Positions 7,577 to 25,118 of a stretch of DNA of 39,370 nucleotides are shown here, in pieces. Source of the stretch: a virus; IMG/VR virus record IMGVR_UViG_3300042284_000040; one strand, given 5' to 3'. Position 1 is the first letter of the stretch; each line of letters starts with the position of its first letter. A model generated the notes under the pieces. The model saw nothing but the letters and a program-made list of their open reading frames with translations, made no database searches and had not been told where the DNA came from. Position numbers and translations under genes: made by a program.

Positions 7577-7587
7577 GGGTAAAGAAC

Positions 7588-8298: not shown

Positions 8299-8317
8299 AC
8301 AGGCCAAACAGCAAAGA

Positions 8318-8339
8318 GAGGGGGGCCACGGACCCCCTC
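8318..8339 (+). other. GC-rich hairpin (GAGGGGG-N8-CCCCCTC) after the 7588-8298 gene; possible weak terminator or RNA-stability element
   Basis: 7-bp G/C stem seen by eye. No clear U-tract follows on the plus strand. Confidence 0.3.
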
Positions 8340-8432
8340 AATGAAAATCCGGAATCGACAAGCTGTTAAACGAAATAAACCGCCTGCGCGACGAAATAGC
8401 GCGGCTCAAAGCACAAGAGCGAGGCAAGCGAA

Positions 8433-9454: not shown

Positions 9455-9468
9455 TAGGGGCCGCGCAA

Positions 9469-9753: not shown

Positions 9754-9797
9754 AAAGAAACAGGCACTTGAGCTTTTCAGGTGCCTGTTTCCATATA
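9754..9797. terminator. Bidirectional rho-independent terminator between convergent operons
   Basis: AAACAGGCAC (9758-9767), a 13-nt loop, then GTGCCTGTTT (9781-9790). T-rich flanks on both strands. Sits between the + gene ending at 9753 and the - gene ending at 9833. Confidence 0.7.
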
Positions 9798-9832
9798 GGC
9801 CAGAGGTAGGCCAGTCAATCCTTACAACCCCC

Positions 9833-10201
9833 TTACGGTTGCATCAGCACGTCATCGCCGGAGAGCAGTTCAGGCTTTTGCGGCCAGTTTATATCATGCG
9901 GGAAATCAAGCTGCTGCGGCACGTCAAGGAGTGCCTGCCTGTATGCCTGAATCGCGTCCTTATCCTCCTGCGGGAGCGTTTCCCACCACGCCGGATTCAT
10001 GCAGTCAACAGAGCACCTGAGCCGGTAGTCCCTCTCCGCCCGCGCCAAGTCCTCGCTGACCACCCAGCGGCCGGAAGCGTCCGCCACATGGTATTCGCTG
10101 GGTCTCTCACCTGACATCAAAACCAAGTCAGGCATTTTCCGTGCCTGAGCCTCTGTCATTATATATTGCAGACTTTCACCTGCTTTTGCGTATATCGGCA
10201 T
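9833..10201 (-). CDS. Tail fibre assembly chaperone-like protein (122 aa)
   Basis: Immediately downstream of the tail fibre gene. The C-terminal pattern AIQAYRQALLDVPQQLDFPHDINWPQKPE is typical of tail fibre assembly proteins. Confidence 0.55.
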   Translation of the reverse strand: MPIYAKAGESLQYIMTEAQARKMPDLVLMSGERPSEYHVADASGRWVVSEDLARAERDYRLRCSVDCMNPAWWETLPQEDKDAIQAYRQALLDVPQQLDFPHDINWPQKPELLSGDDVLMQP

Positions 10202-10202: not shown

Positions 10203-12191
10203 TTAATACCCCCTATCCACTGTTACACGTATGCGGCTTGGCGTTGTGATGACTGTTGTAAAGTCGCCGCCGCCATTACTCATACTGGTGCTTAGGGCAT
10301 AAGAACCTGACCGGATATACAAAGAATCTTTTAATGACGATGCTTTTACTCCATACCCGCCCTCAGGATTACTACTATATACCCAGCCGGTATTACCCCA
10401 GAAGCCTTCTGCAAATACCTGTGCCTTTGCGTTAGAGTTCCTACTGAATACATAGGGCAGGTCTTCAACTACGGTGGTGTTCTTCGCCACCAAACCACCA
10501 TCATTGACAGGCACTGTCACACTACTGCCAAGGCTATAGCAGTGTACGTCCGTTATGGCACCGCCAGACTTTTCAACCCACCCAAGGTACACCCTGCGGA
10601 TCGGGTTATCGTCCTTGTCGTACATGGTGACGCCAGAAATATTGTATATATCCCCTGCTGTAAGGTCAGATACTTGAATGTCTGATATTGTCCATCCATA
10701 CGAGGAATTGACTGTGGCAGCAGTCGCTTTAAGCCGCACAGTATTATTCCCCTCCACAGAGTCAAAGCTCCCACGGAGTGTATTGTCAATATATACCAAC
10801 TCACCGACCTTAGTCCAAACACCACCGACTAGTTGTTCTACATCAGCGGTGCTGGGGGCACTCCCAACATAAGACGCAGATGACGTGGATATTATTGATT
10901 TGACACCCGATTTAGAATCCGGCAGCGTAAACTCTATCCACACACCGATAACCACAGCACCTGACCCAGCACCTGCGCCCCAATACGTTGCAGGGTTGCC
11001 ATCTACTGAGAATTCGATATCACGATCGGCTGCTGTTGATGAAGCAGCAACAGGCACAGGATACGATAGCAACTCGCGAGTGTTAATCTGCGGTGCCACA
11101 TCGGTATGACCAAATCCAGAGAACGTCCCGTCTTCAGCTATATCAGCGTACACATGGTGTGTCCCGTCAGCCGCTGCGGACAGGTCAACAACTTGTGGAG
11201 ATACTAGTTCCTCCGAAAGCTGAACTCTGCCGCCATCTGCGTAGGCCACTTGCAGCCCCGCCTCAACCGTTACCACGTTGCCGCTATGGGACAGACTGGC
11301 TACCGGCGCATCACAGTCAGCAGCCGTCCAGCCGTCGGGACGAGAACCCACTTGAGCCCTCACTATCGTTTGTGGAGCAATATTAACACTCCCTTTAAGA
11401 GGATCTGTCCACTCTACTGCGTCCCCTCCTGCGTTAACAGACAGAGTCTTTCCAGCTTCCGCCTCTGTGTAGGGGGGAAGCTCTTTCTCCTCTATCCCCC
11501 ACTCTGTCTCTCCCAACGAAGAAACCTTAAGAACCTTTCCTTCGTCTGCAACACTGTAAGGAGGGAGCTCCTCAGGCACCTCTGCCCATTCCTTCTCTAA
11601 CGAAGGAGAAATTGTAAGAACTTTCCCCTCATCCCCGGGTGAGGCAATAGGCAGCTCAGCCTGTTCAGCAGCTGTCTCCGCCCTAATAGCAGAAGACTCA
11701 GCCTCTGCCGCAGACTGTGCCGCAGCGTTCTTGCTGGCCTCTGCGCCGTCTCTTGCAGTAACAGCCGCGTCTCTGGCAGCGCGGACTTGCCCAAGATAGT
11801 TCTCCGGCGTGTCCTCAGAAGTCAAAGGCAAGGTCACTGTGCGGCTGAACGCCTCTTTGAGTATCTGCCGCTCGACGGCGGCCTTGTCCATCGCCCGTTC
11901 AAGCGTTTCAAGATTGTAATTGCCGGTGTTTTTCCAATCAGTATCTTGCAAATAATCGGCATCAAGCCAGATTGTCAGCCGCGAACCGGAAGCAACCGGA
12001 ACAGTTGTTGTGAGCGTCGCACCGGTCACAGAGTAATCAACGCCTGCGACAAGCGCAGTGTCAACGTCCGCAGCATCCGTAACCGTTGCTTTGATATTGC
12101 CGGAGTCGAGAAAATCAAAGGTGACGGGAAAATCAACCTGCACCCCGTCCCCCGCGTATTTGTCCGGCGCATACGTTTTTGTAATCGTCAT
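10203..12191 (-). CDS. Tail fibre / receptor-binding protein (662 aa)
   Basis: N-terminal Y-x-GDG...F-x-V-x-F...DY pattern common in podovirus fibre anchors. Three GKVL/GKTL...EW repeats (aa 179-263). A discoidin/CBM-like segment (aa ~383-508). Last large structural gene. Confidence 0.7.
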   Translation of the reverse strand: MTITKTYAPDKYAGDGVQVDFPVTFDFLDSGNIKATVTDAADVDTALVAGVDYSVTGATLTTTVPVASGSRLTIWLDADYLQDTDWKNTGNYNLETLERAMDKAAVERQILKEAFSRTVTLPLTSEDTPENYLGQVRAARDAAVTARDGAEASKNAAAQSAAEAESSAIRAETAAEQAELPIASPGDEGKVLTISPSLEKEWAEVPEELPPYSVADEGKVLKVSSLGETEWGIEEKELPPYTEAEAGKTLSVNAGGDAVEWTDPLKGSVNIAPQTIVRAQVGSRPDGWTAADCDAPVASLSHSGNVVTVEAGLQVAYADGGRVQLSEELVSPQVVDLSAAADGTHHVYADIAEDGTFSGFGHTDVAPQINTRELLSYPVPVAASSTAADRDIEFSVDGNPATYWGAGAGSGAVVIGVWIEFTLPDSKSGVKSIISTSSASYVGSAPSTADVEQLVGGVWTKVGELVYIDNTLRGSFDSVEGNNTVRLKATAATVNSSYGWTISDIQVSDLTAGDIYNISGVTMYDKDDNPIRRVYLGWVEKSGGAITDVHCYSLGSSVTVPVNDGGLVAKNTTVVEDLPYVFSRNSNAKAQVFAEGFWGNTGWVYSSNPEGGYGVKASSLKDSLYIRSGSYALSTSMSNGGGDFTTVITTPSRIRVTVDRGY
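11403..11657 (-). repeat. Three tandem ~27-30-aa coding repeats inside the tail fibre (…DEGKVLxxS…EW…ELPPY…)
   Basis: Protein segment PGDEGKVLTISPSLEKEWAEVPEELPPYSVADEGKVLKVSSLGETEWGIEEKELPPYTEAEAGKTLSVNAGGDAVEW. Confidence 0.7.
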
Positions 12192-12203: not shown

Positions 12204-15200
12204 CTATTTTTTCCGGTAAAAGAGCGGGTTGTAAGACTCGCGCTCGTCGTTCATATATTCGATTGCCTGCCCTATTGTGATTCTGGCCTGCGCCGAGGGG
12301 AAAGGAACAAAGTAGCTGCCGACCTCGACAGTAGCCCAGAACAGGGCCGCGTCGTCGCCGTCGTCGTCGAGGTACTCCGTGCCCGCCCGCTTAATACTTG
12401 AACCAAGACGGCCAACCAAAGAAACGGGTCTCCCGTAGTCGTCCTCGATAATTCGCACGGCATCACGCACAACAGGTATCATGCCCGTTGGATGCATCAT
12501 CACCGTGTATGCGCCCCAAGCCAGCCATTCCTCGTCTTCGTCGTCGTCCGGCCCCCTGCCTGCCAGAAGTTCAGCCGCAATAGTCGGGAAAAGCCAGTAA
12601 AACGCAAGCTCGCCAAAGAATTTGCCTTTACGCTTTCCAGTGCGCAGCGTTCTGAACGAAGACACAATCTGATTGTAGTTCGTGTTCATGTAGCTGAAAA
12701 ACATCATCCACATTCGCTTGTACTCGTTACCGCGCTGCATTGCAGAAATGTCCTTATCCTTGCCGCTGCCCTGCCCCATCGTGACAACGCTGTCCGCAAA
12801 GTCCACAGCCTGCTGCTCAGTCTTTCCTTCCTCTAAGGCAAGCTCGTACGCGGCAACCCAAGACGCACCGGAAACGTGATAGTCAGCAAGTGCGGTAAAG
12901 TACATCATCGCCTCTTCCCACTTCTTGATATGCCGACCAAACCCGAAGTTGCTGCTAATGTCGTGCATTTCCTGCGTGAAGTTATGCCGACGGTCGCGCA
13001 TTTCCAAGCTCTTTTCCTCAATCAGCTTGCCCAACTTGCCGCTGGGAGACTTCACAAGCTGCATCAAGTGTTTGAACATCCTAGCGCTTATCTTCGACTT
13101 TCCGGCCTTCAATCCGTTTTGCATAATCGGGATTGCGTTCAGTAGTCCGGCGTACTGCGAAAGAAACACGGTAGCTTTTAGCCCCATGATTGCGAAGGTT
13201 GCACTTTTGCGCAGCAGCTTTGCCACACGCTGCAAATCGTCATAGTCATACGGCTTCTGACCTGCCACAGCAGCAAGCCAAGGTCGCAGCTGGTCGTATT
13301 GTTCCCGCCCAACAGAGCGGATAAGAACGTCTTGGATGCGCCCGTTCTGCAAGAGCCTGTCAACATCGATAACGGCTTCGCGCAGATAAATATCGTGGGT
13401 AACTTGGTCAATGTGCCGGACAAGAACATCAAGGCTCAACGCCACGCGCTGCCCGCCGAAGTTGGTTCTTTCCTTCGTATGGCCGTTTCGTGTCGTCGGA
13501 ACGAAGCCGCCGCCACCGAACATTTCCTGAACGCTCTTTGCATCCTCACGTTGGGCCGCTCTTACGGACAAGTCACGGTCAGCAACGAGAGGATAATAAC
13601 CGCCGCGCAACTTCCTGCCGTTGATTACGAAAGGCTCAGCCTCGACCTTCTCCGGAACTGTACCATTCAACCGCCTGTAAAGGGCCACGATATCAGGCCA
13701 GAAGCTATCCACATGCGACCATATTTTTTCAACGACATCCCAATCACGTTCATCAAGGCGTGAAAGAACAGCATTGCCCTGTTCTTCCGTCCACCCTTCA
13801 CCCGTCAGGAGCGATTTCCAGTTGTGCGAGTTGCCACGGTTCAGGGCTACCGCAAGAATCTGCTCTTTTGTCAGGCTGTCGTTTATCTCGCGGATAAAAA
13901 ACTTTTGCGTCTTGAATCGCGTCAACTCATCTTTCGTGTACCGCCCGAAAATATCAGGCCCGTAAATCTCATTGCGGGATTCAAACAGCCGCTTATTTTT
14001 GTTGTTTACGCCTTCCTTGATAGGCCGGTAAATCATGTCCCACCACAAGCCGTTAGCCTTACCACCATCAAGGGCAAGACACAGGAACTCGACTTTCGTC
14101 AGGCTTGCATCAATACCTTTGAAAATCGAGCCAACGCCCTTCTTGGCTGCCTCCCTGCTGATTCTTTCCGGCCCCAGCTTGTCACCGTAAATCTGTTCGA
14201 CCTGAACGACCATTTCAGCCACGGTTTCATTAAAAAGCCGCTTCTTTCTGGCAGTCATCACGGTTTCAAGACGGCGGCCAACTGTTTCTATTGATTTTAC
14301 AGAATCCCGCACGCTGCGGAGCGCATCAAGAGACATGGCCTTGTAGCTCATCCGGTTGGCTTCGGCCTCTATCAGCGGCGGTATTGCAGGCTCAAAACCC
14401 TTTTCGCGCTGCGCTTTAAGCCAGTTTGCCAAACTCTCGCGGCGGCCTATCTCCGTCAACGTTGTTGATTTACGCAGGTCAAAACGCTCAAGAATCTGGT
14501 CTATCTGGTCAAGGTGTTCTCGCGCAATTGCCTTGCGTGTCGCAGGCTTATTAAACTTGCCAAGATATTTTCTCGCTCTTTCAACTTCTTCCTTGGCCTT
14601 CAAAGACTCGGAAGCAAGTGCTGCCGCTGCAAGCTGCCGCTGCTTCGCGGCTGCCACTGCCTGCATATCGCCGCGCTTTGCGGCTTCAACAGCTTCACGC
14701 GCGGCCTTGCGCTCTGCGCGCTGATGCGCTGCGGGCTTGATTGCATCGTTGACCTTCATGCGCCCGATTGTCTGCCGTGCAGCCTCGCGGATAAATTTGA
14801 CCCGTTCTCGCGCTGCACGTCTGTTCTGTTCTGAAAAAACAGAAGCTATTTTTCTTTCGGCAATATCCTGCTCAACAGCCAAAAGCTCAAGGCGGGAATC
14901 ATCGCGCAGTACAGCCTCTGCCGTAGCTCGCACGTTCTCATCAGACAACAAGTCCTCAAATTCCTGCATCCTTGATTCAACGGATTCCGCAATAACCTCC
15001 TTGAGCGGGCGCAGGTTGGAAAGCTCTTGCACCATTTCATCACCGGATGTGTAACCAAGCCACGTTGCCAAAACGTCAGGATGGACACCCTTCTTGCTGT
15101 AGATGGGCGGGACAGCCTTATACAGGTCAGCAAGCGTACCGGCCCCCCATCCTTCCTTGATAGCGTCCGAAGATATGCGCATATTCCCCTTGGAAGCCTC

Positions 15201-18200
15201 AGCAAGACCGCCGGTCAACTCCGGCTTTGTCTCATCGGGGAAATACCCTTTCGACAGATAATGCACAGCACGGTATCCGCGCTCTGCGTTCAGGTCGGCC
15301 CTGATTTCAGACTCAAGCCTCTTGCGCTCCTCCCTGTACCATTGCGCGTTTCTGTCTTTAATCTGGCGCATCAGCTTTGCGAGCATGATTTCCCGCGCCT
15401 TCTCCCGCGCCTCAGAATGAGCACCGGAATAGATTGCAAACTCTTCATCCGTCATGCCTGCCTCTTCCGCAGACGTGTACAGCGGAGCATATTCGGCTAT
15501 GGCCTCCGCTTCCGCAATCTGTTCCTCAGTGGCAAGCATCCTGTCCATCAGCCCGCGCACGTCGTCCGACAATTCGACATTCAGGCGACGCATGGAACGG
15601 TACACACCCAAAAGCCAATTCTTGAACCGCTTGAACGCATTCCCAAGCTCAAGACTCGGAGCCTTACCCTCTCTGACATAGGTTTCAAAAGAGCGGGCAA
15701 ATACCTCCTGCCTGCCAACCCACACCCAAGAGGCATAGTAGGAATAGTCGTCCTCAGCCATGTTGAAGCCGTCAACACCTTCGCTGCTCAGCCTGTCAAA
15801 AGACTTTTGCGCCGCTTCAAGGTCGTATTTGTACCGCTCAGCGTTGACGCTATTCACGCGCGCAGCGTCTTCATACCGTTTCTTTGAACGTTCAAGCCCC
15901 TCTTTCGCTGCCTTCATTGCGTCGGCATAAACTTTATCGCGGTTCTTTTCCCAATGCGCTTCAAGAGCCTGCCATTCGTTCAGAACTCGGTCAGAAGCAC
16001 GAAACAGCTTAGACATCTTGCGGAAGTCGTTCAGGAAAATATGCGCTGTCTCATGCAGGAATGTCGATTTGTCTGCACGCTTAAACAACCGCACAAGCGT
16101 GCGCGTATTCTCAAACCGCACAAGCCCCCTGCTGGTGTCCTGTGTGGGTTGATAGAACGTGTTCAGAATTTCAATAGCGTTGTCATCGAATATGACGTAG
16201 TTGTACGAGCCTTCGCCCGCCGCGCGGCTGGTACCGTCAAGGTACTTGATGCCCTTGATGCCGATAGAGTTCAGGTACTCGGATGCGGCTTTGTCAGAGT
16301 GCCATTCTCCACCAGCTAGGGGGTTATTGCCTAATTGTTCCGCGAGTTCATGGTATACCTGTCTACCTGTCAGCTCCAGAGCACCTTCCAGCGTGCTGGC
16401 AATAGCCTGGACGTGGCCGGGAGTTAGAAGCAGATTGCCACCCTTAGCCTCTCTCGCTGACGAAACAGCAGTTTCCAACGCCTCCCGAACCTTCTCCGGC
16501 TGCTCGGACAGGGGCTTATCCCAATGGAGCAACACATCATCTTCGGGGATGTCGACTTCGTAGAGCTGGCCCTTTGGCTTTGTATTGTCTATAGCTACAT
16601 TTCGGTCGCGTATGCTTTCAAGAAAAGCAAAAGCAGGCGCATATTTGGACCGCAGCGAGGGAAGCGGGCCAGATAAGTCCTCCGCCCCCCGTATTTGTTC
16701 GTTAAGCCCGAAGATAGCGCCGTCTACACTGCCGGACGACACGTCGAGAGCTGTCAACACTTTCGCTTTCATCAAAGAAGACAAGGAAGACAATTCGGGC
16801 ATGGCGCCTATGGGCTTCCCATCTACCAGTATGCGGGCCTCCCTCGGGGGCATTGCTTTTCGTGTAAGCTCCTCCCTGTACCACTCTGCAACATCTTTCC
16901 GCCCAGCAAAGTACAATCCCCACCCGTAAGCCTGCGCGCCTTCGCCGGAGCCGATAGCGTCCAGAGTAAACTTGTCGAATTTATGCGGGGTTCCGTGAAA
17001 AGCGGACTGATACATTATGCGCGCGTCCGACGGGTCGAACGTGCCACGGTTGCCGGTGGCTGATTTGATTTGAGTGGGGTCGAACGCTACTACCCACGGC
17101 TTATCTTTTTTTGCGGAGTACTGCGGATTGAGTATGACGACACCATCGTGCCCCGCGGATTCTATCGCTTTCCGCATGTTGTTTTCAAAACGCCCTTCTG
17201 AAATGATAAAGCCCTCAGCGTCACGAACGTCTGGCGTCATTCCGGAGTTCTCGCGCATAAATGCTCTGAAATCCTCTTGGGTTTTAAAAAACATGGGGTT
17301 TTTAAGGCCAACATAGTACTTTCCGACATTCGGCCCGAAACGCTTAGCGTCCCTTTCCTTGGACGCAAAAAACGATCCGATATTCTCCCCAAGCGGATTA
17401 CGCGCCGACAAGTCCATAGACCTATCGGAAGTATCGAAGGCGTCGAACTCCGCCCCTGTCCCGTGGTATACCTCGAACACCTGCCTCCCGTCCGCCCACC
17501 GCTTGAAATACGGTGACTCAGTGCCCTGCTCCCGCCACAGCCGCGCGGCCTCTTCGACCTCAGCAGCGTTGTTCACGTCCGCGCCTGCGGTCTCGGCGGC
17601 CTGCTGCAATTCAAGCCCTTGCCCTTCCGTGCGTGCGCCTTCCATCAGTCCGGACACGGACATTGATTTGCCCGTTCTGTCATCCGTGACAACAAGGTTG
17701 TGCTCTTTCAACCACTCTTGCGGGGTCATTTCCAAGCCGGATTCAGTGTAATCACGCGCCGCAATAATGGCTCTGGCACCCCATATCGCCGCGTTTGCGT
17801 CCGCCTCTTCCTCGCTCATACCGACACCAAGAAGCGCGTTCTTAACGAAGTCGCGCACCTCGCGGCCCTGTTCTTCTTCTGCAATCAGCTTTTCAGCCTG
17901 CTGCTGTGCCTCATCAAACCCACCGGCGAAAAGCTCCGGCATATTGGCAATGAAATTTCTGGCCTCGCGCGGGGTCATGTCGTTGGGGTCAAAGCGGAAG
18001 TCTTCTTCAAGCGCAACACCGGCATCAGTTCCGGCTATGTGCGTCATAAACTCGGAAAGCGGGAAAGCAATGTCGCCGCCAACAGCAAGCGCGGCATCAA
18101 GCTGGGAAAGCGTGTCTGTCTGCTCAAGAAGGGAAATAAACGATTCTTCATCAGCAACGGCTTTTTGCAGTGCGTCAACAGGAATATACACCTCGCTGGG

Positions 18201-19598
18201 TGCAATGCCCATGTCTTCAATGGCCTGAGCATATGTCTTGAATATTCCTGTACTGCGCTCTCTCAGTTTGGACGCTGCAACGCCTTCATTAATCTGCTGA
18301 AAGAAATCCTTGTTGCGCTGGGCACGTTCTGCAAGTTTCTGCTCGCTGCGATACTTGCCGACATACGCCATGCTGCCACCTGCTGCAAATGCACCAACCA
18401 TAACATCAATGTTACGGCTTGCAATTGCTGCCTTCTCTGCGGCTTGTTCAAGGCTTTCGCCTTTTGCAATGCTTTCAATAAATGCGCCTGTAGGTTCTTC
18501 CGCCCACTCTGTGCCTGCTTCAACAGCACCCGTCACAGTGCTTTTTACAATACGCGAGGCAAGAGACTTCACCCTCTCTTTTCCGAGCCAGCGGTCTGCC
18601 CCGACCTTTTCAAGCGCGCCGACAACGCCGCCGAATCCAGTTGCAGCAACGTGAGCCGTCGGCCCGTCTACGCCATCGGCCAGCAGGTCATTGTAAAGCT
18701 GGCCTGCTTCCGCCATTGCTCCCATGCCAGCAGCGGCGAGCGAACCGCCGCCGGTTGCATATGCTGCACCGGCCATCGCAAGGACGTTTGCAACGCCCTG
18801 CGCAACATTGTCTGCAACCCATTCAGGATTGAGAAGCAGTTCAGGATTTTCGATAAGCTGGCCTTTAGCATCGTCCGAGAGTTCCAGAAGTTCGGACTCG
18901 ACAATGCCCTCTTGTATGCTGCGAGCGTTTGCCAGTGCCCAATCTCGCACGGCACCGAACGCGCCACCGCGCGGCAATCCGGTAATCTGCTCAAAGCCCA
19001 TTGCAGCGTCATCAAGCGCACCTGTAGCATAGGCTATTGCGTTATACGGCATGACACCGAGTATCGAAGCAGCGCCTTTTGTCGCGCCTTTCAATGTGCC
19101 TTTTGCAAGCCCCTTTGCGAGGTTCCCGACGCTGGGCACGTCAGCTTCCGAAATATCATCGGACAGCAGGCCACCGGCAAAAGAATCCTCAAGCATGGCA
19201 AGGTTGTCCACGTCGTCGCGGCTTGCAGCCATGCCTTCCGGCGTTTCAAGCACTCTCTGCAATGCCGGTCTCGTTTTGGCAACATCCTGCAACCGCTGCA
19301 ACTCGTCCTCTTCTGCGAATTGGTCACGGTTCCGCTGAACGAGGCCGGATTCAACGCCAAGTTTCTTTGCCAGTTCCAAGTCCTGCGCGGCCTGCTCAGG
19401 AGAAAGCCCGCGCGAGTTCCGATATGCTGCGCGAATCTTTTCTTCCGGCCCTTCCTGCTCAATAACAGGAATTGTATCCATAAGCGAAGAAGGCGAAAGC
19501 GGCGCGCCCATCACAGGAGCGCGTTCCACACTTTCGACATCTTCGGGCATATCATCAGTGCCGTAACCACCAAGAAGGCTTTTGGGAGAGAGAGGCAT
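12204..19598 (-). CDS. Giant internal virion / ejection protein in the T7 gp16 position (2464 aa), with embedded enzyme-like modules
   Basis: Uninterrupted 7.4-kb ORF between the gp15-like gene and the tail fibre. HGT-motif modules at aa ~695-845 and ~862-1146. HExxH at aa 1182-1186. Long charged coiled-coil region. Hydrophobic Gly/Ala-rich N-terminal and C-terminal segments. Confidence 0.7.
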   Translation of the reverse strand: MPLSPKSLLGGYGTDDMPEDVESVERAPVMGAPLSPSSLMDTIPVIEQEGPEEKIRAAYRNSRGLSPEQAAQDLELAKKLGVESGLVQRNRDQFAEEDELQRLQDVAKTRPALQRVLETPEGMAASRDDVDNLAMLEDSFAGGLLSDDISEADVPSVGNLAKGLAKGTLKGATKGAASILGVMPYNAIAYATGALDDAAMGFEQITGLPRGGAFGAVRDWALANARSIQEGIVESELLELSDDAKGQLIENPELLLNPEWVADNVAQGVANVLAMAGAAYATGGGSLAAAGMGAMAEAGQLYNDLLADGVDGPTAHVAATGFGGVVGALEKVGADRWLGKERVKSLASRIVKSTVTGAVEAGTEWAEEPTGAFIESIAKGESLEQAAEKAAIASRNIDVMVGAFAAGGSMAYVGKYRSEQKLAERAQRNKDFFQQINEGVAASKLRERSTGIFKTYAQAIEDMGIAPSEVYIPVDALQKAVADEESFISLLEQTDTLSQLDAALAVGGDIAFPLSEFMTHIAGTDAGVALEEDFRFDPNDMTPREARNFIANMPELFAGGFDEAQQQAEKLIAEEEQGREVRDFVKNALLGVGMSEEEADANAAIWGARAIIAARDYTESGLEMTPQEWLKEHNLVVTDDRTGKSMSVSGLMEGARTEGQGLELQQAAETAGADVNNAAEVEEAARLWREQGTESPYFKRWADGRQVFEVYHGTGAEFDAFDTSDRSMDLSARNPLGENIGSFFASKERDAKRFGPNVGKYYVGLKNPMFFKTQEDFRAFMRENSGMTPDVRDAEGFIISEGRFENNMRKAIESAGHDGVVILNPQYSAKKDKPWVVAFDPTQIKSATGNRGTFDPSDARIMYQSAFHGTPHKFDKFTLDAIGSGEGAQAYGWGLYFAGRKDVAEWYREELTRKAMPPREARILVDGKPIGAMPELSSLSSLMKAKVLTALDVSSGSVDGAIFGLNEQIRGAEDLSGPLPSLRSKYAPAFAFLESIRDRNVAIDNTKPKGQLYEVDIPEDDVLLHWDKPLSEQPEKVREALETAVSSAREAKGGNLLLTPGHVQAIASTLEGALELTGRQVYHELAEQLGNNPLAGGEWHSDKAASEYLNSIGIKGIKYLDGTSRAAGEGSYNYVIFDDNAIEILNTFYQPTQDTSRGLVRFENTRTLVRLFKRADKSTFLHETAHIFLNDFRKMSKLFRASDRVLNEWQALEAHWEKNRDKVYADAMKAAKEGLERSKKRYEDAARVNSVNAERYKYDLEAAQKSFDRLSSEGVDGFNMAEDDYSYYASWVWVGRQEVFARSFETYVREGKAPSLELGNAFKRFKNWLLGVYRSMRRLNVELSDDVRGLMDRMLATEEQIAEAEAIAEYAPLYTSAEEAGMTDEEFAIYSGAHSEAREKAREIMLAKLMRQIKDRNAQWYREERKRLESEIRADLNAERGYRAVHYLSKGYFPDETKPELTGGLAEASKGNMRISSDAIKEGWGAGTLADLYKAVPPIYSKKGVHPDVLATWLGYTSGDEMVQELSNLRPLKEVIAESVESRMQEFEDLLSDENVRATAEAVLRDDSRLELLAVEQDIAERKIASVFSEQNRRAARERVKFIREAARQTIGRMKVNDAIKPAAHQRAERKAAREAVEAAKRGDMQAVAAAKQRQLAAAALASESLKAKEEVERARKYLGKFNKPATRKAIAREHLDQIDQILERFDLRKSTTLTEIGRRESLANWLKAQREKGFEPAIPPLIEAEANRMSYKAMSLDALRSVRDSVKSIETVGRRLETVMTARKKRLFNETVAEMVVQVEQIYGDKLGPERISREAAKKGVGSIFKGIDASLTKVEFLCLALDGGKANGLWWDMIYRPIKEGVNNKNKRLFESRNEIYGPDIFGRYTKDELTRFKTQKFFIREINDSLTKEQILAVALNRGNSHNWKSLLTGEGWTEEQGNAVLSRLDERDWDVVEKIWSHVDSFWPDIVALYRRLNGTVPEKVEAEPFVINGRKLRGGYYPLVADRDLSVRAAQREDAKSVQEMFGGGGFVPTTRNGHTKERTNFGGQRVALSLDVLVRHIDQVTHDIYLREAVIDVDRLLQNGRIQDVLIRSVGREQYDQLRPWLAAVAGQKPYDYDDLQRVAKLLRKSATFAIMGLKATVFLSQYAGLLNAIPIMQNGLKAGKSKISARMFKHLMQLVKSPSGKLGKLIEEKSLEMRDRRHNFTQEMHDISSNFGFGRHIKKWEEAMMYFTALADYHVSGASWVAAYELALEEGKTEQQAVDFADSVVTMGQGSGKDKDISAMQRGNEYKRMWMMFFSYMNTNYNQIVSSFRTLRTGKRKGKFFGELAFYWLFPTIAAELLAGRGPDDDEDEEWLAWGAYTVMMHPTGMIPVVRDAVRIIEDDYGRPVSLVGRLGSSIKRAGTEYLDDDGDDAALFWATVEVGSYFVPFPSAQARITIGQAIEYMNDERESYNPLFYRKK

Positions 19599-19599
19599 A

Positions 19600-21336
19600 T
19601 TATCTGCGTCCTATGCTTTGCAGTTTCCATGCGAGGAAGGCGGCTTTCTTTGCGTCGCCCTTGTCCGCGTATTTCTTTTCCCACGCTGCGCGGTCTATAA
19701 CATCGGGGTCATTCCATGCGAGGTCAAAATCATCGGGAACACTGGACGGCAGCCAGAGCGGGGAACCGTTCGCAATGCTTGAAACAAGCTCCTGCTGCGT
19801 AAACTCGCCGTCGTATATGGCCTGCGCAAGCGTCGAGCCGTCACTGAAAAGACCAGCAATCGGAGACATGAACGACGGTTCGCGACCTTTCACCGCCATA
19901 GCATCCGCCGCCTTCTGGATATAGTCGGTATCCTGCGCGCGGTTAGTTTCGCGCACCTGATTGCGGACAGATTGAATCATTTTGAACTTGGTATCATCGT
20001 TCATTTTTTTCCATTTCTTCGGCCCGAAAGTAGCCTTGAACGCATTTTCGATTGCTGTTTCCGTAACCTTCTGCGATGTGGTCAAAAACTTCACAAGGTC
20101 GCCGTCAAGGTCATCACTCGCAACGCCAACCGCGCGCGGGTCTGACTTTATCTGTTCCGGCGTGTTAATTCTGCCGGAAAGAATATCGTCGCGTATCCCT
20201 ATGTAGTCGCCCGCCTTGGTCAACGGGTTCATGCCGTTTGACCTCTTCCACTCGTTGAGGCGGTTTTCAGCAAAGGTTGCAATGCGCCGGTCTTTTTCGG
20301 TCGCTCTCGGCATGCTGGCAACAAGCGTCTCGGCCTCTTGCAGGTTCGTTGATGCAAGGCTGTCAAGCTCGTCGCGCACAGTGATTGCTCCGCGCTGATA
20401 CTCTTCCTCGTCAATCTTCGCCTTGATTGTCCAAGCGTTTGAGTACGCAGAGCGGGCCGCCGCGCGCTTTACGGGGTCTTTTATTCCCGCAATATCCTGC
20501 CACGCCTCAGACGCAGGCTTGCCGGAATTGTACAGCTCTTCAGCAAAGGCGATGCCGCTTTCCTTGTTTGCCCTCTCGCGGGCATCATCCACCCGGGCAA
20601 GCATGTCATCGTAAGACGAGCCAAGCACCTTACGGTTGTCTGCAAGAAGCTTTTTCGCACCTTGGTAGTCATTGACGGCCAGCCGCTTGTTTATCTGCGT
20701 TTGCGCAATCTCATTATCAACTGCGGCAAGCTCCTTGGTATGGTCTATGCCGCCAAACACCGCGCTAAGCTCGTTGGCATACGCCTGCCGCTGCTTTGCC
20801 ACCTCTTCCGGATTGTCGTTCTCGGCAACAAACTGCATCAGACGCGCCCTGCTGCCATCAATAACGCTTTTCTGCCATGCTGCTTTCTGTTCTGCCGCAT
20901 ATCCAGAGGCGCGCCGGATACTGTTCATTGAATCGCGGACGGAAAGCTTTTGAAACATCAACGCCGCTGCGGGACTATCATTGAACCGTGCCGCTAGTTT
21001 GCTGGCTGTTTTCTCATGAAAAGCTGCAAAGTCCTGCGGCGCATTAAGCGCGGCCTGCCCCTTGTTCTTTTCAAAGTATTCCGACTCAAAAGCCTGCGTT
21101 TCTTTGAAAAGCTCGTTTTGTGCCTCAAGAACTGCCACAGCTTCAAGGCGTTCTTTCTCTTCCTTGGCCTGCTTTGCGTACACTCCGGCAACCTGAGTTG
21201 CGCCTTTTACAAGAGCATCGCCAATACCGGAGTTGAACACCTGCGCGACCGGAAGCCCGCCGGACTGCATGGCAGCAGGCACACCGCCGGAAACACCAGC
21301 AGAAAAGCCCTGCGGCTTATAAATCCTGATTGCCAT
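19600..21336 (-). CDS. Internal virion protein, gp15-position (578 aa)
   Basis: Position between the gp14-like and gp16-slot genes. Alpha-helical, charged composition. No enzymatic motif seen. Confidence 0.45.
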   Translation of the reverse strand: MAIRIYKPQGFSAGVSGGVPAAMQSGGLPVAQVFNSGIGDALVKGATQVAGVYAKQAKEEKERLEAVAVLEAQNELFKETQAFESEYFEKNKGQAALNAPQDFAAFHEKTASKLAARFNDSPAAALMFQKLSVRDSMNSIRRASGYAAEQKAAWQKSVIDGSRARLMQFVAENDNPEEVAKQRQAYANELSAVFGGIDHTKELAAVDNEIAQTQINKRLAVNDYQGAKKLLADNRKVLGSSYDDMLARVDDARERANKESGIAFAEELYNSGKPASEAWQDIAGIKDPVKRAAARSAYSNAWTIKAKIDEEEYQRGAITVRDELDSLASTNLQEAETLVASMPRATEKDRRIATFAENRLNEWKRSNGMNPLTKAGDYIGIRDDILSGRINTPEQIKSDPRAVGVASDDLDGDLVKFLTTSQKVTETAIENAFKATFGPKKWKKMNDDTKFKMIQSVRNQVRETNRAQDTDYIQKAADAMAVKGREPSFMSPIAGLFSDGSTLAQAIYDGEFTQQELVSSIANGSPLWLPSSVPDDFDLAWNDPDVIDRAAWEKKYADKGDAKKAAFLAWKLQSIGRR

Positions 21337-21339: not shown

Positions 21340-21930
21340 TTACCCCGCAAAGTTTCCGGTGTACCAGTTTGTGCCAACCTTAGGCGAGGCAGCTTTGAAG
21401 CCGCCAAACGCGCCATAAACGCCAAGACCAGAGGATGCACCGGATATGCCCGCCGTCAGCAGCGAACCGCCGAAAGAACCGGCGTTGCTATCGTAGAAAT
21501 CGGCCTGAGACCTGAGAACGTTCGATTGCCATTCATGATAGTTAACCTTGCGCTGTGCCTGCCACCCGACAAGCTGTCGTTGCCTTCCAAGCTCCGCGTA
21601 ATCTGCGGCAAACAGGTCAGCATTTCCAGCAAGCGCGGCGAGCGGGCTTCCCGTCGTCAGGTCAACACCGGCAGCCGACAACTCTGCCCTGTTCTGTGCG
21701 GCCTGCATGTCATATTCACGGCGCAAAATCTCCTTCTGCTTGTCCACCTTCTGCTGTTCCAGTTGGCCCTCAATTTTCGTCTGTTCGGCCTCATACTGCT
21801 GGGCGAGCGCATTGTTTCGCGCAACATCCGCCTGATATTCCATTTGCGCGCGCTGGGCTTCGGCAGACATAAAGCCCTGTATTGCCGTTGCGCCGCCAAC
21901 AACTATAGCAGCGGAAAGAGCATCACACAT
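21340..21930 (-). CDS. Internal virion protein B, T7 gp14-like (196 aa)
   Basis: The N-terminus MCDALSAAIVVGGATAIQG...AEAQ resembles the T7 gp14 N-terminus (MCWAAAIPIAISGAQAISGQNAQA, from memory). Similar length, Gly-rich C-terminus, and position after the gp13-like gene. Confidence 0.55.
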   Translation of the reverse strand: MCDALSAAIVVGGATAIQGFMSAEAQRAQMEYQADVARNNALAQQYEAEQTKIEGQLEQQKVDKQKEILRREYDMQAAQNRAELSAAGVDLTTGSPLAALAGNADLFAADYAELGRQRQLVGWQAQRKVNYHEWQSNVLRSQADFYDSNAGSFGGSLLTAGISGASSGLGVYGAFGGFKAASPKVGTNWYTGNFAG

Positions 21931-22402
21931 GGTATCGACTCCTTGTCATATAGAACACGCAAAAAGCATGGTCATATGCTGGGCTTGTCTGAGGTCCTCC
22001 GACCTCAAACCCAAGCCGCTTGATATATCTGATATTCTCCGTACTCGTCGCCAACACAATATTGACCAAACAGGGGAAAACTTCTAGCCACTTTCGCACG
22101 AAGAAACGGCCCATGCGGAGCATAACTTTTCTGCGCCTGTTCAGCCCGTCTGTACCCATCATCCACGGTATCCCCATATCTGCATTGGCGGTCGGAGCGA
22201 GGCCAAAAATTGCCAGCGGCTCATCATCAAATGTCAGAACATCGCAGGTAACACCATGCCGCAGCCCGTAAAGAAGAACGTCCGCCGGTCGGTCATTTGG
22301 ACGCAACCCCCGCAATTCTGCAAGGTCGGTCTCTCTCAATCTCTCGGCAACGCAAAGAACATCCCCAACCGTTGCCGCTCTGACAATTAAACCGCTGCTC
22401 AT
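21923..22402 (-). CDS. gp13-like (DUF2833-like, GNAT-fold-like) virion assembly protein (159 aa)
   Basis: Pattern FGLAP...GIPWMMGT...NIVLATSTENIRYIKRLGFEV. Position directly after the nozzle gene (TAATG overlap). Confidence 0.45.
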   Translation of the reverse strand: MSSGLIVRAATVGDVLCVAERLRETDLAELRGLRPNDRPADVLLYGLRHGVTCDVLTFDDEPLAIFGLAPTANADMGIPWMMGTDGLNRRRKVMLRMGRFFVRKWLEVFPCLVNIVLATSTENIRYIKRLGFEVGGPQTSPAYDHAFCVFYMTRSRYHV

Positions 22403-24492
22403 TACGTTGTTTCCCCCACATCCGTGTCATACGTCACGGAGTGAATCGTTGCCGGTGTCGGGTCATCAACTTGCATGATGAATTTCCACTCATCCGTCCA
22501 GCCGGTAGCAATGACAATTTCCTTGTCGCCGGAACTGAACGGCAGCGCGGCGGGGTCTGTAGCGTCGCGCTGCACCACCTCTTCAAGAGATGCGTTGTCC
22601 GCACCGGCCCACAACCCCATAGAATTGAGAACACGAATATTGACGCTTTTCACGTTGTAGACGCGGGAAAGCGTCGTTCCATTCTGTGAAGTCAACTCAG
22701 GTCTTGTCGGTCTGAGCCTTGACTTAAATGAAAGACCGACGTGCACAACACTTGCAGGTTGGTCAAGTGTGATACTGCCACCAGACACAACACGCGGCGG
22801 CACGGCTGCACCGTCTGCAAGAATGACGACCTCGCGCCCTGAAAGGTGACCAAGGCCGGTTATCGTTGTTGTCGGCGCGCCATCGTACAGAATGCCGCAA
22901 TCCACAAAGTGCGCGGACCGCAGGTCGGTATCAAGGACGAAGAAGTCTGCCATCCGCTCAATATAGCGTTTCTCCACTCCGTCCACAGTCCGGCGCACAA
23001 CAAGCCATACCTCGTCTTTGTCTCCGTTCGGGATGCACGCGACGCGCTCCACAAAGCCGTCAGTTTCGTGCGTATGCCATCCTGCCACCTCATGCATGCG
23101 CATGTATGTGCAGGCCGCAAGCGTGCCATCATCCAGCACGCACCAAATAACGGAGTACGGTGCTTGCTGATATGTCCACGAGACAACTTTTTTCCCAAAG
23201 AAAATCGAGTTTGCGAAAATGGTCAGGTCAGGGGAAACAAAACCGTCTTCGCGGTAATCGTACAGGAACTCGTTAATTTGGCTGCCACCGCGTTGCAGGT
23301 AAAGCACACTCTGCCCGACGACAAGAGCAGGCAGCCCAGCCTCAGAGCCGCAACGTGTGTGAGTTTCAAACTTGGTATTAATAGGTGTCAGCGCGTCGCC
23401 CTCTGAGCCTGTAAGAATCACCTCTGAGCCTTCGGTTCCAATGCACAAGTCTTTTTTACTCTGACACCATGCAATGCGGTTCACACGCTGGGCGGCGAGG
23501 TTTATGTCAATCCCTTGGTCTGCCTGCGGCGGCGTTGCATATGACAAGTTGTCAAAGTCGCTCGACCACGAAAGCCATATGCCAAGCGGACGCTCAGCAG
23601 TGCTTGCCCAACCAAGCCTCTGCTGATGGAAGAAGACAAGGCGCGGATATTTACCGGCTGCATCAAACGGATTTTCAGCCTCAATCGGCGCATCGGCTAT
23701 GTCAGGGCCGATATTTCCGTCTCGGAACGTCGTGTCGCCGCCAACAGCCTTTCCAATGAAGCCAAAAACGCCGGTCTTCTCTTTGTATATGCGGTATTCA
23801 AGAGCGTCGGGCACGGCATTCCAAGACAGGTTTACATAGTCGTCCGTGTACCACTCGCCAACCGGACGACCGTTCGGAACCTCGATTGTAGCAGAGCCAA
23901 CGGATAATTCCCCATCCTGTGATACTGTTGCGACCTTGTACTTGACAGTGTATGTCCCCGCGCTGGAATTGGGATCCGGAACAAACGTCCCCGTCCCGCC
24001 TGTAGGCGGCTGGATGGTAGGCTCAAATGTCAAAACCTCAATCGTCCAGTTGTCATCGGCAAAGCGGCTTATCTTGCGCGGAGCCTGATTACCGCAAGCC
24101 ACAAAAACAACGTCAGCAGACTGCGCAAACGTGAGAAGCGGCACGTCTGCGGCTGTGTACGGCGTTGCAAGCTCATACGGGCTGCCACCACTCATAACAA
24201 GGCCGTCGCGCGTCCAGACCCGCATATAGCCTGCTCCGAACTCAAGAATGCGCGCCTCGTTCTGGGAGAAAATGAACTCTTCCAAAATTACGGGGTTTCC
24301 GGTGTTCGGCTGGTCTTTTGCCTCGCCCATGTAGTACGTCCCTGCACGTCTGGTTGCCGGTCCCTGAGGAAGCGCAACAAAATTCTTCATCACCAGACAG
24401 CCGGACTGATAACGCTGTTGCTCAGGACGTGAGAGCAGCAGCGGAGAAATTACGCCGCCGTTAAACGCATGAGACAGGAGAGCAACACCCAT
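22402..24492 (-). CDS. Tail nozzle protein (tail tubular protein B, T7 gp12-like; 696 aa)
   Basis: The N-terminus SHAFNGGVISPLLLSRPEQQRYQSGCLVMKNF...GPATRR parallels T7 gp12 (NLKGGISQQPDILRYPDQG...GLQKRP, from memory). Size and position after the adaptor fit. Confidence 0.6.
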   Translation of the reverse strand: MGVALLSHAFNGGVISPLLLSRPEQQRYQSGCLVMKNFVALPQGPATRRAGTYYMGEAKDQPNTGNPVILEEFIFSQNEARILEFGAGYMRVWTRDGLVMSGGSPYELATPYTAADVPLLTFAQSADVVFVACGNQAPRKISRFADDNWTIEVLTFEPTIQPPTGGTGTFVPDPNSSAGTYTVKYKVATVSQDGELSVGSATIEVPNGRPVGEWYTDDYVNLSWNAVPDALEYRIYKEKTGVFGFIGKAVGGDTTFRDGNIGPDIADAPIEAENPFDAAGKYPRLVFFHQQRLGWASTAERPLGIWLSWSSDFDNLSYATPPQADQGIDINLAAQRVNRIAWCQSKKDLCIGTEGSEVILTGSEGDALTPINTKFETHTRCGSEAGLPALVVGQSVLYLQRGGSQINEFLYDYREDGFVSPDLTIFANSIFFGKKVVSWTYQQAPYSVIWCVLDDGTLAACTYMRMHEVAGWHTHETDGFVERVACIPNGDKDEVWLVVRRTVDGVEKRYIERMADFFVLDTDLRSAHFVDCGILYDGAPTTTITGLGHLSGREVVILADGAAVPPRVVSGGSITLDQPASVVHVGLSFKSRLRPTRPELTSQNGTTLSRVYNVKSVNIRVLNSMGLWAGADNASLEEVVQRDATDPAALPFSSGDKEIVIATGWTDEWKFIMQVDDPTPATIHSVTYDTDVGETT

Positions 24493-25118
24493 TATGCAAA
24501 CCCTCCTTCGTTATCAGGGTTGTATCCATACCCGCGAGCCGTCAGAAACTTGCATTCCAAGTTTTCGTTTGTCCTGCGAGGAAGGTTGTTGCTATCGTCG
24601 GAAGTCCTTGCCTTGTCCAGCGCGAACTCATAACCCTGCAACATTTGGCTCGTCAGGTTCGACTTCGCAAGGGACGGCGCAATCTCAGCCGCCAGCTTCC
24701 AAGCGACCGTATCAATGAACCCAGCCGGAGCAAATCCAAGGTCTTCCGTATATATGACGTATCGCGCATAGCAGGGGTTCGCGTCCGTGTAGACAATGTT
24801 GCCGGAAACGAGAACATGCTTTTCAGGCTTTGCGGTCAAGTCCGGCACGCTGCGCACATCAAGCAGCCGCAACGCCTCTTGCGGAGCCTGATACGCGAAC
24901 TCAAACCCGAAAGGCGGAGCCTCTTGCAGCTTGGCAAGCGTCGCGTACTTTGTCGCAAACCCCCAGGCATGTTCCTCTATCACCTCGCGCAGCACGTCGC
25001 GTATGGCACTATTGCACTTGTCAGCCTCTTTCCCAGCCTGTGTCAGACTGGAAATGCGGTTCTGCCCAATCTTAAAGAGTGCCTTGTTTGCGATGCTCAA
25101 CAAATGAACTTGCGACAT
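24492..25118 (-). CDS. Head-tail adaptor (tail tubular protein A, T7 gp11-like; 208 aa)
   Basis: N-terminal pattern IANKALFKIGQNRISSLTQ...ADKCNSAIRDVLREVIEEHAWGFA resembles the gp11-family pattern (...IGE.PVS.L...A..IL....R.IQS.GW.F). TAATG overlap with the nozzle gene. Confidence 0.6.
   Translation of the reverse strand: MSQVHLLSIANKALFKIGQNRISSLTQAGKEADKCNSAIRDVLREVIEEHAWGFATKYATLAKLQEAPPFGFEFAYQAPQEALRLLDVRSVPDLTAKPEKHVLVSGNIVYTDANPCYARYVIYTEDLGFAPAGFIDTVAWKLAAEIAPSLAKSNLTSQMLQGYEFALDKARTSDDSNNLPRRTNENLECKFLTARGYGYNPDNEGGFA

Follow-up and report, generated by a model that had tools for sequence, protein, structure and literature searches.

The 39,370-nucleotide stretch of viral DNA analysed here (IMG/VR record IMGVR_UViG_3300042284_000040; hereafter the window) carries a giant gene, X, whose product we consider likely to be the polyvalent ejection protein of a BPP-1/epsilon15-type podophage, with a constant chassis around a variable middle from which ART cargo is injected into the host. 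Polyvalent internal virion proteins of podophages form a very large class that has been described before, and X is an ordinary member of it. Its local twist is a cassette of 447 aa with two ART-type modules, which has no counterpart in the closest relatives (55% identity).

The X reading frame runs from an ATG to a stop codon and translates into 2464 aa. It occupies a T7-type position, with the gp15-slot gene on one side and the tail fibre on the other, and lies among late virion genes in a portal-to-fibre operon with a T7_gp14-family gene nearby:

27889-29580, portal (PF12236)
24492..25118 (-), tail tubular protein A/adaptor, 208 aa (phrog_394, E 2.5e-39)
22402..24492 (-), tail tubular protein B/nozzle, 696 aa (phrog_376, E 4e-181)
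21923..22402 (-), internal virion protein in the gp13 slot, 159 aa (phrog_308, E 1.2e-25)
21340..21930 (-), T7 gp14-family internal virion protein, 196 aa (PF24072, E 2.2e-8; phrog_418)
19600..21336 (-), gp15-slot protein, 578 aa, a presumed ejection protein
12204..19598 (-), X, a predicted polyvalent ejection protein (internal virion protein) at the T7 gp16 position, from the ORF list, translation and colinear homologues
10203..12191 (-), tail fibre, 662 aa, with a T7 gp17-type N-terminal attachment domain (PHROG matches)

The Pfam and PHROG matches agree with the T7-like order that the preliminary description had read from the sequence (adaptor, nozzle, gp13-, gp14- and gp15-like proteins, X, fibre), and the syntenic position of X in the gp16 slot is confirmed. 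Several tail-fibre PHROGs matched the N-terminal ~100-150 aa of the fibre. The gp15-slot protein had no match in Pfam, PHROG or NCBIfam, no transglycosylase was recognised in it and no similarity to BPP-1 bbp11 was found; it is 35% identical to the syntenic gene adjoining P0002, one of the two closest relatives of X, in a locus whose gene order is the same. Across IMG/VR, tubular protein B lies upstream of the giant gene in 31 of 34 loci, and a homologous tail-fibre N-terminus lies just downstream of it in 34 of 62. The contig carries no RNA polymerase gene. No near-identical DNA was present in phage records, a contig look-up by the exact X protein was empty, and single-sequence pattern searches returned no close relatives in GTDB genomes or IMG/VR; these searches yielded no host. 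A plus-strand ORF of 666 aa at 17700-19700 was rejected as a gene, being an antisense shadow of X. T7 gp16 has 1318 aa, so that X is 1.9 times as long, in keeping with the earlier estimate of about twice; this doubled size is usual for the family (median 2,344 aa among IMG/VR relatives).

Homologue alignments and profile searches divided X into the following parts:

17499..19463 (-), conserved N-terminal region, aa ~46-700 (homologue alignment)
19179..19430 (-), LPD22 domain, aa 57-140 (PF18834, E 2.7e-19)
16158..17498 (-), cargo cassette with both ART-type modules, aa ~701-1147, 447 aa (absent from P0002 and P0003)
17037..17474 (-), ART module 1, full-length ART-PolyVal, aa 709-854 (PF18760)
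16149..17024 (-), module 2, divergent ART-like with a ~140-aa helical insert, aa 859-1150 (hhalign, partial Pfam match)
15594..16127 (-), zincin-like module, aa 1158-1335 (HExxH and a second conserved motif)
12207..15593 (-), conserved C-terminal carrier module, aa 1336-2464 (phrog_9880, similarity to Bbp10)

With LPD22 and ART-PolyVal above their Pfam cut-offs, together with ART-like and HExxH modules, X falls within the definition of polyvalent proteins, and the comparison with that class made at the outset was sound. The two HGT motifs and the HExxH motif first noticed by eye were located at aa 712 and 868 and at aa 1182 (HETAH), respectively; since only 0.10 HGT and 0.03 HExxH are expected from the composition of X itself, they exceed chance, and we take them to be real because they are conserved in homologues. 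The long charged helical stretch also holds, with 32-37% K/R/D/E over aa 1200-1900 and long helices predicted. The terminal segments described as hydrophobic are moderately so (Kyte-Doolittle 19-residue maxima of 1.0-1.36 at aa 176-195, 261-291, 390-415, 2128-2160 and 2327-2377) but are not clear transmembrane helices. As the preliminary description had stated, there is no lytic-transglycosylase motif: the Pfam search of X returned no SLT, lysozyme or other muralytic match, and NCBIfam gave none at all.

The putative chassis would be composed of the N-terminal LPD22 region, the zincin-like module and the helical carrier. LPD22, the N-terminal hallmark of the family, scored 69.6 bits in X against a Pfam cut-off of 28.6 and is also present in Bbp10, Carin1 gp32, P0002 and P0006; after it comes a moderately hydrophobic stretch rich in Gly and Ala. 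Roughly residues 46-640 of X were aligned by ~25 homologues, the N-terminal region is 47-48% identical to that of P0002 and P0003, and it is found in the same ORF in 29 of the 62 IMG/VR relatives. The carrier, of ~1,130 aa, is almost wholly alpha-helical with amphipathic or hydrophobic helices at its C-terminus (AF2 model, pLDDT 72) and contains an invariant RGGYYPxxxD motif at aa 1998-2007. It shares 32% identity with BPP-1 Bbp10 over 1146 aa (E 1e-126), and its family comprises 5,825 cluster representatives at E<=1e-30, being conserved in thousands of podophage-sized contigs. Its model had 84 BFVD matches, one of them named 'Structural protein' (Tenacibaculum phage Gundel_1).

A direct homology between the carrier and T7 gp16 was not borne out, as every sequence, profile and fold test was negative or far below significance. 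The carrier HMM scored 6.3 bits against T7 gp16 in hmmsearch, and hhalign against a nine-member T7 gp16 alignment gave Prob 3.5%; the search for T7 gp16 homologues had yielded only proteins at least 94% identical, unfit for a profile. Against epsilon15 gp15-17 the same HMM had no significant match (gp17, 2.8 bits), Foldseek against PDB gave E values of at least 0.11, and a PDB profile search found nothing real, a Sec62 match being low-complexity noise. Because these direct comparisons were negative, the homology of X with T7 gp16 rests on the stepwise chain in the literature, in which Bbp10 was joined to T7 gp16 (IVP-D) through intermediate HMM-HMM comparisons (Hardies et al. 2016, PMC4819975).

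The third element of the chassis, the zincin-like module, consists in order of a beta-hairpin, the HExxH helix, a ~110-aa helical insert and a helix bearing E1298 and E1305 (QEVFARSFETY). In the AF2 model, H1182-E-T-A-H1186 lies on a predicted helix at aa 1177-1196 preceded by the hairpin. All 70 homologues examined have HExxH upstream of the second motif, which bears out the initial reading of a zincin-like motif, and the H, E, H, E1298 and E1305 positions are at least 90% conserved in two homologue alignments (A2/A3). The module is present in all 62 IMG/VR ORFs. Neither Pfam nor NCBIfam matched it in X and no zincin family profile was significant, while a few relatives gave weak Pfam matches (SprT-like, 0.028; Tox-MPTase4, 0.019; Peptidase_M1, 0.01). 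Zincin-mediated processing of polyvalent proteins has been proposed (PMC5512222; PMC9503650), and Iyer et al. (2017) predicted processing peptidases where cargo meets carrier (PMC5512222), a junction at which this module always stands. It could instead be an entry enzyme cutting peptidoglycan cross-links or envelope proteins, a reading that we regard as unlikely, though the best placed of the alternatives. Such a role would suit a phage in which both X and the gp15-slot protein lack a recognisable muralytic domain while relatives have SLT in the gp15 slot; the module is also kept whatever the cargo and even where none was detected (P0002), and the ejection protein gp28 of cyanophage A4 has a metallopeptidase beside a transglycosylase (PMC12002296). 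However, the A4 peptidase is an M23 enzyme and not an HExxH zincin (PMC12002296), no peptidoglycan-peptidase family in Pfam matched the module, and BPP-1 carries both an SLT protein and a zincin-like module, so the latter is not simply a substitute for SLT.

The cargo slot would lie after the N-terminal region and ahead of the zincin-like module, where X has its two-module ART cassette and where relatives carry differing effector domains; P0006, for example, combines LPD22, DUF3293 and an ART. Both closest relatives, P0002 and P0003, lack aa 701-1147. Residues 46-700 of X align with 39-698 of P0002 and residues 1148-2464 with 720-2011, P0003 being alike, and no cargo domain was detected in P0002. 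Module 1 matched Pfam ART-PolyVal (PF18760) with 66.9 bits against a cut-off of 31.2, over profile positions 8-140 of 140. It has H712, D818 of the GxDG motif and F743/F744 at the aromatic position, where Iyer et al. (2017) described a Tyr for H-Y-D ARTs (PMC5512222). Among 20 aligned ART-PolyVal family domains, the GxDG Asp is invariant (20/20) and the aromatic column holds Y, F, W or H, so the Phe of module 1 lies within normal variation.

Module 2 is more divergent. Its motifs read HGSPHxFDxF...GTGEGAQAxGWGLYFA...NYVxFDD. Pfam ART-PolyVal matched it only partially and below the cut-off (23.3 bits, profile positions 10-46), and no Pfam model covers it as a whole; an hhalign comparison with the ART-PolyVal-type set gave 95.3% (E 2e-8), colinear over both ends, and ART-PolyVal matched 26 of 41 segments related to module 2. 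H868 and Y896 are conserved. The H-Y-D site is incomplete, the GxDG Asp being replaced at the aligned position (GIKGIKY), and D1121 and D1138/D1139 offer alternative conserved acidic residues. In 37 distant proteins whose overall identity is only 30-36%, the motifs have stayed strongly conserved, which points to selection on function. An AF2 model of aa 859-1345, comprising module 2 and the zincin-like module, reached a pLDDT of 85.6; Foldseek found no ART or zincin structure for it in PDB (best E 0.28, long-helix noise), and PDB sequence and profile searches were empty. The suggestion of ART-like central modules stands on PF18760 for module 1 and hhalign for module 2, but not on a PDB fold match (Foldseek, aa 859-1345).

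Because module 1 has Phe for Tyr and module 2 lacks the aligned invariant Asp, either or both may be catalytically inactive, judging from these residues. Carried further, this would make X an enlarged structural core protein whose ART modules are dead relics or spacers, with nothing enzymatic delivered; the same two substitutions, the ability of P0002 and P0003 to do without the cassette and the failure of Foldseek to recover an ART fold from the aa 859-1345 model are in line with it. We consider it improbable, as module 1 matches the Pfam profile along its full length with a score twice the cut-off and retains its His and Asp, its Phe falls within the Y/F/W/H range of the family, and the motifs of module 2 have been maintained at the distances given above. 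Module 2 also occurs inside Bp-AMP1 gp40, a protein matched by a T7 gp16-family HMM, and as a stand-alone gene adjoining the portal in phiGT1, and an RS-PI-1 protein homologous to the protein that carries it is annotated as 'structural protein P5'; from these contexts, module 2 may travel as virion-associated cargo.

We infer the packaging, ejection, processing, catalysis and targets of X as follows. A few copies of X would be produced late and enter the capsid core together with the gp14-like and gp15-slot proteins. On adsorption, X would be ejected ahead of the DNA through the portal-tail channel, and the carrier would help to build or anchor a conduit spanning the envelope. The cargo would then reach the cytoplasm, possibly released by the adjacent metallopeptidase, and the ARTs would ADP-ribosylate host macromolecules using host NAD+ before phage genes are expressed. 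This activity would be analogous to that of T4 Alt and might serve to commandeer host functions or weaken defence. Injection of the ART-type cargo into the host with the DNA is the probable outcome, and Iyer et al. (2017), who defined polyvalent proteins and found ART to be their commonest protein-modifying domain, predicted that such proteins are injected with the DNA (PMC5512222). Hardies et al. (2016) wrote that internal virion proteins 'variably host ... domains destined for the cytoplasm' (PMC4819975).

The ART modules might act elsewhere than in the newly infected cell: they might work late in the producing cell, modify phage components or DNA, or serve as a toxin of benefit to the host population. 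Polymorphic toxins also contain HYD2-type ARTs, for which a role as toxins or virulence factors has been suggested (Iyer et al. 2022, PMC9503650), and the possible substrates of ARTs include nucleic acids besides proteins (PMC5512222). We hold this very improbable, as X sits inside a late structural operon, is fused to the carrier of thousands of podophage-sized contigs and had no secretion or adhesion domains detected in the Pfam search. Mis-assembly, raised in the preliminary description, or a gene-calling error fusing separate genes is highly unlikely: the contig is metagenomic and its GC skew over 16001-17000 is slightly less negative than in neighbouring windows, but the identical 2464-aa product occurs on three contigs, a fragment 98% identical to X (P0217) was found elsewhere, 62 IMG/VR contigs as well as cultured phages have uninterrupted colinear homologues of 1,784-4,254 aa, and the order ART, zincin, carrier recurs in at least 14 independent proteins.

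Beyond the delivery of ART cargo by X, we offer tentatively, as a possibility, the view of the class as an effector platform with exchangeable cassettes and zincin-mediated release, in which module 2 represents an unmodelled ART clade with a new type of target. The single slot of the chassis may exchange cassettes even between close relatives, the universal zincin-like module may cut the cargo free after ejection, and module 2, which is shared by BPP-1-type carriers, gp16 homologues of the Autographiviridae such as Bp-AMP1 gp40 and the stand-alone gene of phiGT1, may belong to an ART clade with a non-canonical catalytic residue.

X is not a discovery, because its class was catalogued computationally in 2016-2017 and is very large (thousands of 50%-identity clusters); it adds one example. 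The preliminary description regarded such modules in a T7-type core protein as undescribed, a claim that does not survive comparison with Bbp10, Carin1 gp32, Bp-AMP1 gp40, Hardies et al. (2016) and Iyer et al. (2017). BPP-1, gp16 and internal virion proteins are not taken up in the main text of Iyer et al. (2017; PMC5512222). What X and its closest relatives do provide is a deletion control made by nature: the proteins are otherwise colinear and differ by a single ART cassette of 447 aa. They are a clean test case for whether ARTs delivered by podophage virions alter host range or sensitivity to defence.

Among known systems, T4 Alt works in the manner proposed here for X: it is a head-packaged ART that enters the cell with the DNA and modifies host RNA polymerase, among other proteins, as infection begins (PMC5512222). 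Unlike X, whose H-Y-D-type ARTs form part of a podovirus ejection protein, Alt is a small myovirus protein on its own, of the R-S-E (Alt/VIP2) clade; X lies outside the Alt family. The T7 gp16/IVP-D proteins resemble X in being large and almost all-helical and in lying downstream of the gp14- and gp15-slot genes and immediately upstream of the tail fibre. Their homologues host enzymes destined for the cytoplasm, such as the virion RNA polymerase N4 gp50 and the methylase gp60 of Pseudomonas phage H66 (PMC4819975), while the cargo of X is ART rather than RNA polymerase or methylase. X also lacks SLT; the N-terminal lytic transglycosylase domain of T7 gp16 is not found in all IVP-D proteins either.

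Bp-AMP1 gp40, from a Burkholderia phage of the Autographiviridae, is a gp16-slot protein of 1665 aa with a compact module 2 at aa 687-853. Pfam recognised neither ART nor SLT nor any other domain in it, and its link to X is the module-2 HMM (125 bits, E 3e-40), the two proteins sharing the motifs WHGSP...GTGEGA...G(F/W)G(H/L)Y...NYV(L/I)F(H/D)D. The flanks of gp40 match the T7 gp16-family HMM (E 1.6e-9) and not the carrier of X, and gp40 lacks the helical insert, LPD22, ART module 1 and the HExxH module. RSB1 and RS-PI-1 are relatives of Bp-AMP1. A literature search for proteomics on Bbp10, Carin1 and RS-PI-1 found nothing usable.

The polyvalent class of Iyer et al. matches X in LPD22, in an ART-PolyVal of the H-Y-D/Tox-ART-HYD2 type and in a zincin-like peptidase, although the module of X had no significant match to their MPTase Pfam model. 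The closest likeness in layout is to BPP-1, Carin1 and PhiXacm4-11, which share the slot order tubular A, tubular B, internal virion protein(s), gp15-slot protein, giant gene and fibre, and whose giant proteins Bbp10, Carin1 gp32 and PhiXacm4-11 gp35 are of 2052-2854 aa. The gp15-slot protein of these three phages contains a transglycosylase, whereas none is detectable in the phage of X. PhiXacm4-11 gp35, from a Xanthomonas phage, is likened to X by slot and size and, like the carrier model of X, is without PDB similarity. Carin1 gp32, from a Cobetia phage, shares the slot and the LPD22 chassis with X, and BPP-1 Bbp10 (NP_958679) shares the slot, the N-terminal LPD22, the HExxH module and the C-terminal carrier. 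The cargo differs, being PBECR1 in Bbp10 and PBECR5 in Carin1 gp32, both predicted RNases, and ART-PolyVal with an ART-like module in X.

The reading frame of X, the presumed ejection protein in the T7 gp16 slot, is unbroken from 12204 to 19598 on the minus strand and encodes 2464 aa, about twice the length of T7 gp16 (1318 aa), as the preliminary description had stated. The two HGT motifs and the HExxH motif reported there were located at aa 712 and 868 and, as HETAH, at aa 1182, exceeding the chance expectations of 0.10 HGT and 0.03 HExxH derived from the composition of X itself. Mis-assembly of the ORF is very unlikely, because an identical product was found on three contigs. A 666-aa GTG-started ORF on the plus strand (17700–19700) was rejected as a gene, since it runs antisense to X and is best explained as the shadow of a long coding frame. 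The long charged stretch was recovered (32–37% charged residues across aa 1200–1900, where long helices are predicted), whereas the terminal segments, described as hydrophobic, showed only moderate hydrophobicity. The Pfam and PHROG identities of the minus-strand neighbours confirmed a T7-like gene order:

Minus strand: T7-type portal (PF12236)
Minus strand: tubular-A-like tail protein
Minus strand: tubular-B-like tail protein
Minus strand: internal virion protein (phrog_308)
Minus strand: T7_gp14-family protein (PF24072)
19600–21336, minus strand: gp15-slot protein of 578 aa, without a Pfam, PHROG, or NCBIfam match
12204–19598, minus strand: X, between the 578-aa gp15-slot protein and the tail fibre
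Minus strand: tail fibre, N-terminally similar to tail-fibre attachment domains

The window appears to be an almost complete podophage genome of about 39 kb, with genes for recombination, replication, terminase, and lysis; neither a single-subunit RNA polymerase nor a tRNA was found in it. A divergent block on the plus strand (3190–10114) carries genes encoding an exonuclease VIII-like protein, an SbcC-like protein (phrog_1499/77), an HNH endonuclease, and several unknowns, with no RNA polymerase, integrase, or tRNA seen in the parts that were inspected.

The enzyme-like modules proposed for the central part of X were largely supported by profile comparisons but not by fold searches. According to Pfam, LPD22 occupies aa 57–140, and a complete ART-PolyVal domain (ART module 1) lies at aa 709–854 (66.9 bits, cut-off 31.2). 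When this module was aligned with 19 related domains, the strand-1 histidine (H712) was kept, D818 corresponded to the Asp of the invariant GxDG motif, and the aromatic position, given as Tyr by Iyer et al. (PMC5512222), was Phe in a column containing Y, F, W, or H. Each ART-PolyVal unit in this family is closed by a conserved linker, QIKSAxGNxGxFDPxxP(D/N), which in X reads NRGTFDPSDAR (aa 850–860; 17037–17069, minus strand) and is repeated after every aligned ART repeat of the database homologue P0057. The motif could mark the border of a domain or a point at which the protein is processed.

The second HGT module (module 2, aa 859–1150) gave only a partial Pfam match to ART-PolyVal (23 bits). 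It is one of a well-conserved set of modules of about 290 aa, with 37 copies among the matches at 30–36% identity, sharing the motifs awHGsPhxFdxF, GtGEGAQaxGWGlYFa, GxlYxVelP, kaaSxxL, GixGixY, and nyVxFdd. Profile–profile alignment with hhalign showed it to be colinear with the ART1-type set across both ends (95.3%, E 2e-8), and 26 of 41 related segments matched ART-PolyVal independently, while two matched PARP weakly. The invariant Asp of the ART-PolyVal family is absent from the aligned position, and catalysis is therefore uncertain. In a confident AF2 model of aa 859–1345 (pLDDT 85.6), module 2 opens with the expected strand–helix–strand arrangement, continues with a large helical insert, and ends in strands; no PDB match to this model was returned by Foldseek. 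The module-2 HMM also detected a compact copy (aa 687–853, 125 bits), missed by Pfam, inside gp40 of Burkholderia phage Bp-AMP1, an Autographiviridae gp16-slot protein annotated as "endolysin" (record positions 3775–8772) whose flanking regions match a T7 gp16-family HMM (E 1.6e-9). Sulfitobacter phage phiGT1, a P22/T7-like podophage, has module 2 as a stand-alone 387-aa gene (gp5, 4918–6081) in its head module, two genes past the portal, with a borderline ART-PolyVal score (30.0 bits, cut-off 31.2). Recognising module 2 as a conserved ART-like family that lacks a Pfam model and is shared between podophage lineages looks new, as a minor point.

The two closest relatives of X are 55–60% identical to it in the C-terminal carrier (aa 1336–2464) and 47% in the N-terminal region. 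Both align with X colinearly except for the absence of aa ~701–1147, that is, exactly both ART-type modules; around one of these two relatives the gene order is identical. This precise cassette indel likewise looks new, as a minor point. The jumbo phage Tunturi_5 of Tunturiibacter (PP885688.1, 309 kb) bears the whole two-module cassette (227098–228942; 95% of aa 700–1150, 34% identity) in a gene annotated as a MutT/NUDIX hydrolase, which shows that both modules also move together outside the ejection proteins of podophages. BK063671.1 (Caudoviricetes sp. vir555; 32477–36949) encodes module 2, the zincin-like module, and the carrier (X aa 857–2463, 31% identity); its recorded host, Methanomicrobiales (archaea), is odd for a family otherwise found in phages of Gram-negative bacteria.

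The zincin-like module (aa 1158–1335) is predicted to comprise a beta-hairpin, the HExxH helix, a helical insert of about 110 aa, and a helix with the motif QEVFARSFETY. In all 70 homologues having this second motif, HExxH lies at most 260 residues upstream of it. Conservation is 90% or more at the H, E, and H of HExxH and at E1298 and E1305. None of the curated zincin families was matched at significance. An IMG/VR survey yielded 80 loci, mostly on contigs of 36–50 kb, including 62 full ORFs (median 2,344 aa, range 1,784–4,254), every one of which carries the module; such a universal HExxH module at the cargo/carrier boundary looks to be a further new, minor point. Of the 34 loci whose flank was long enough, 31 had a tubular-B homologue 4–6.5 kb upstream, and a T7-gp17-type fibre N-terminus came next after the giant ORF in 34 of 62.

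The carrier, the C-terminal ~1,130 aa, is almost all-helical (phrog_9880, AF2 pLDDT 72) and contains an invariant RGGYYPxxxD motif. Searched alone at E ≤ 1e-30, it retrieved 5,825 cluster representatives, always at the C-terminus of proteins of ~1,900–3,500 aa. It also found 84 BFVD structures, among them proteins named for an LPD, ART-PolyVal, MuF-C, nuclease, or acetyltransferase domain. Nearly all of 93 database matches combine LPD22 with varying polyvalent-protein domains, most commonly ART-PolyVal, and one metagenomic relative joins LPD22, DUF3293, and ART-PolyVal. X belongs to a known, very large protein class, and the suggestion that its arrangement is undescribed was not supported. Direct homology tests of the carrier against T7 gp16 or epsilon15 gp17 gave either nothing or scores well short of significance, for which reason X is called a positional gp16 equivalent; homology to gp16 rests on the literature. 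IVP-C and IVP-D have a reputation for being difficult to match, the T7, phiKMV, and epsilon15 sets having been joined only through stepwise HMM–HMM links, the chain on which the IVP-D connection depends, with Bbp10 listed as the BPP-1 homologue of IVP-D (Hardies et al. 2016, PMC4819975).

The best-supported reading, already proposed in the literature for this protein class, is one in which we infer every step: X, a late product, would be packed into the core of the capsid and would leave it before the DNA on ejection. Its helical carrier would contribute to an envelope-spanning conduit, and the cargo would act on host macromolecules in the cytoplasm, using NAD+, like T4 Alt, with the adjacent metallopeptidase possibly freeing it. 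An envelope-degrading role for the zincin-like module is a serious alternative, favoured by the lack of a recognisable muralytic domain in both large ejection proteins of this phage, in the gp15 and gp16 slots, and by the presence of SLT in the gp15 slot of relatives. The domain search found no transglycosylase in X, in line with the preliminary description, nor in the 578-aa gp15-slot protein, unlike the syntenic bbp11 (BPP-1), gp33 (Carin1), gp15 (epsilon15), and gp34 (PhiXacm4-11), in which a muralytic domain is present.

The closest parallels occupy the same slot as X, namely Bbp10 of Bordetella phage BPP-1 (2052 aa) and gp32 of Cobetia phage Carin1 (2854 aa); a 2,300-aa protein without PDB similarity also fills the gp16 slot of PhiXacm4-11 (2026 preprint). 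Bbp10 and Carin1 gp32 share the C-terminal module with X at about 30–33% identity (E down to 1e-167) and have the same architecture with other cargo, LPD22 plus PBECR1 in Bbp10 and LPD22 plus PBECR5 in Carin1 gp32.
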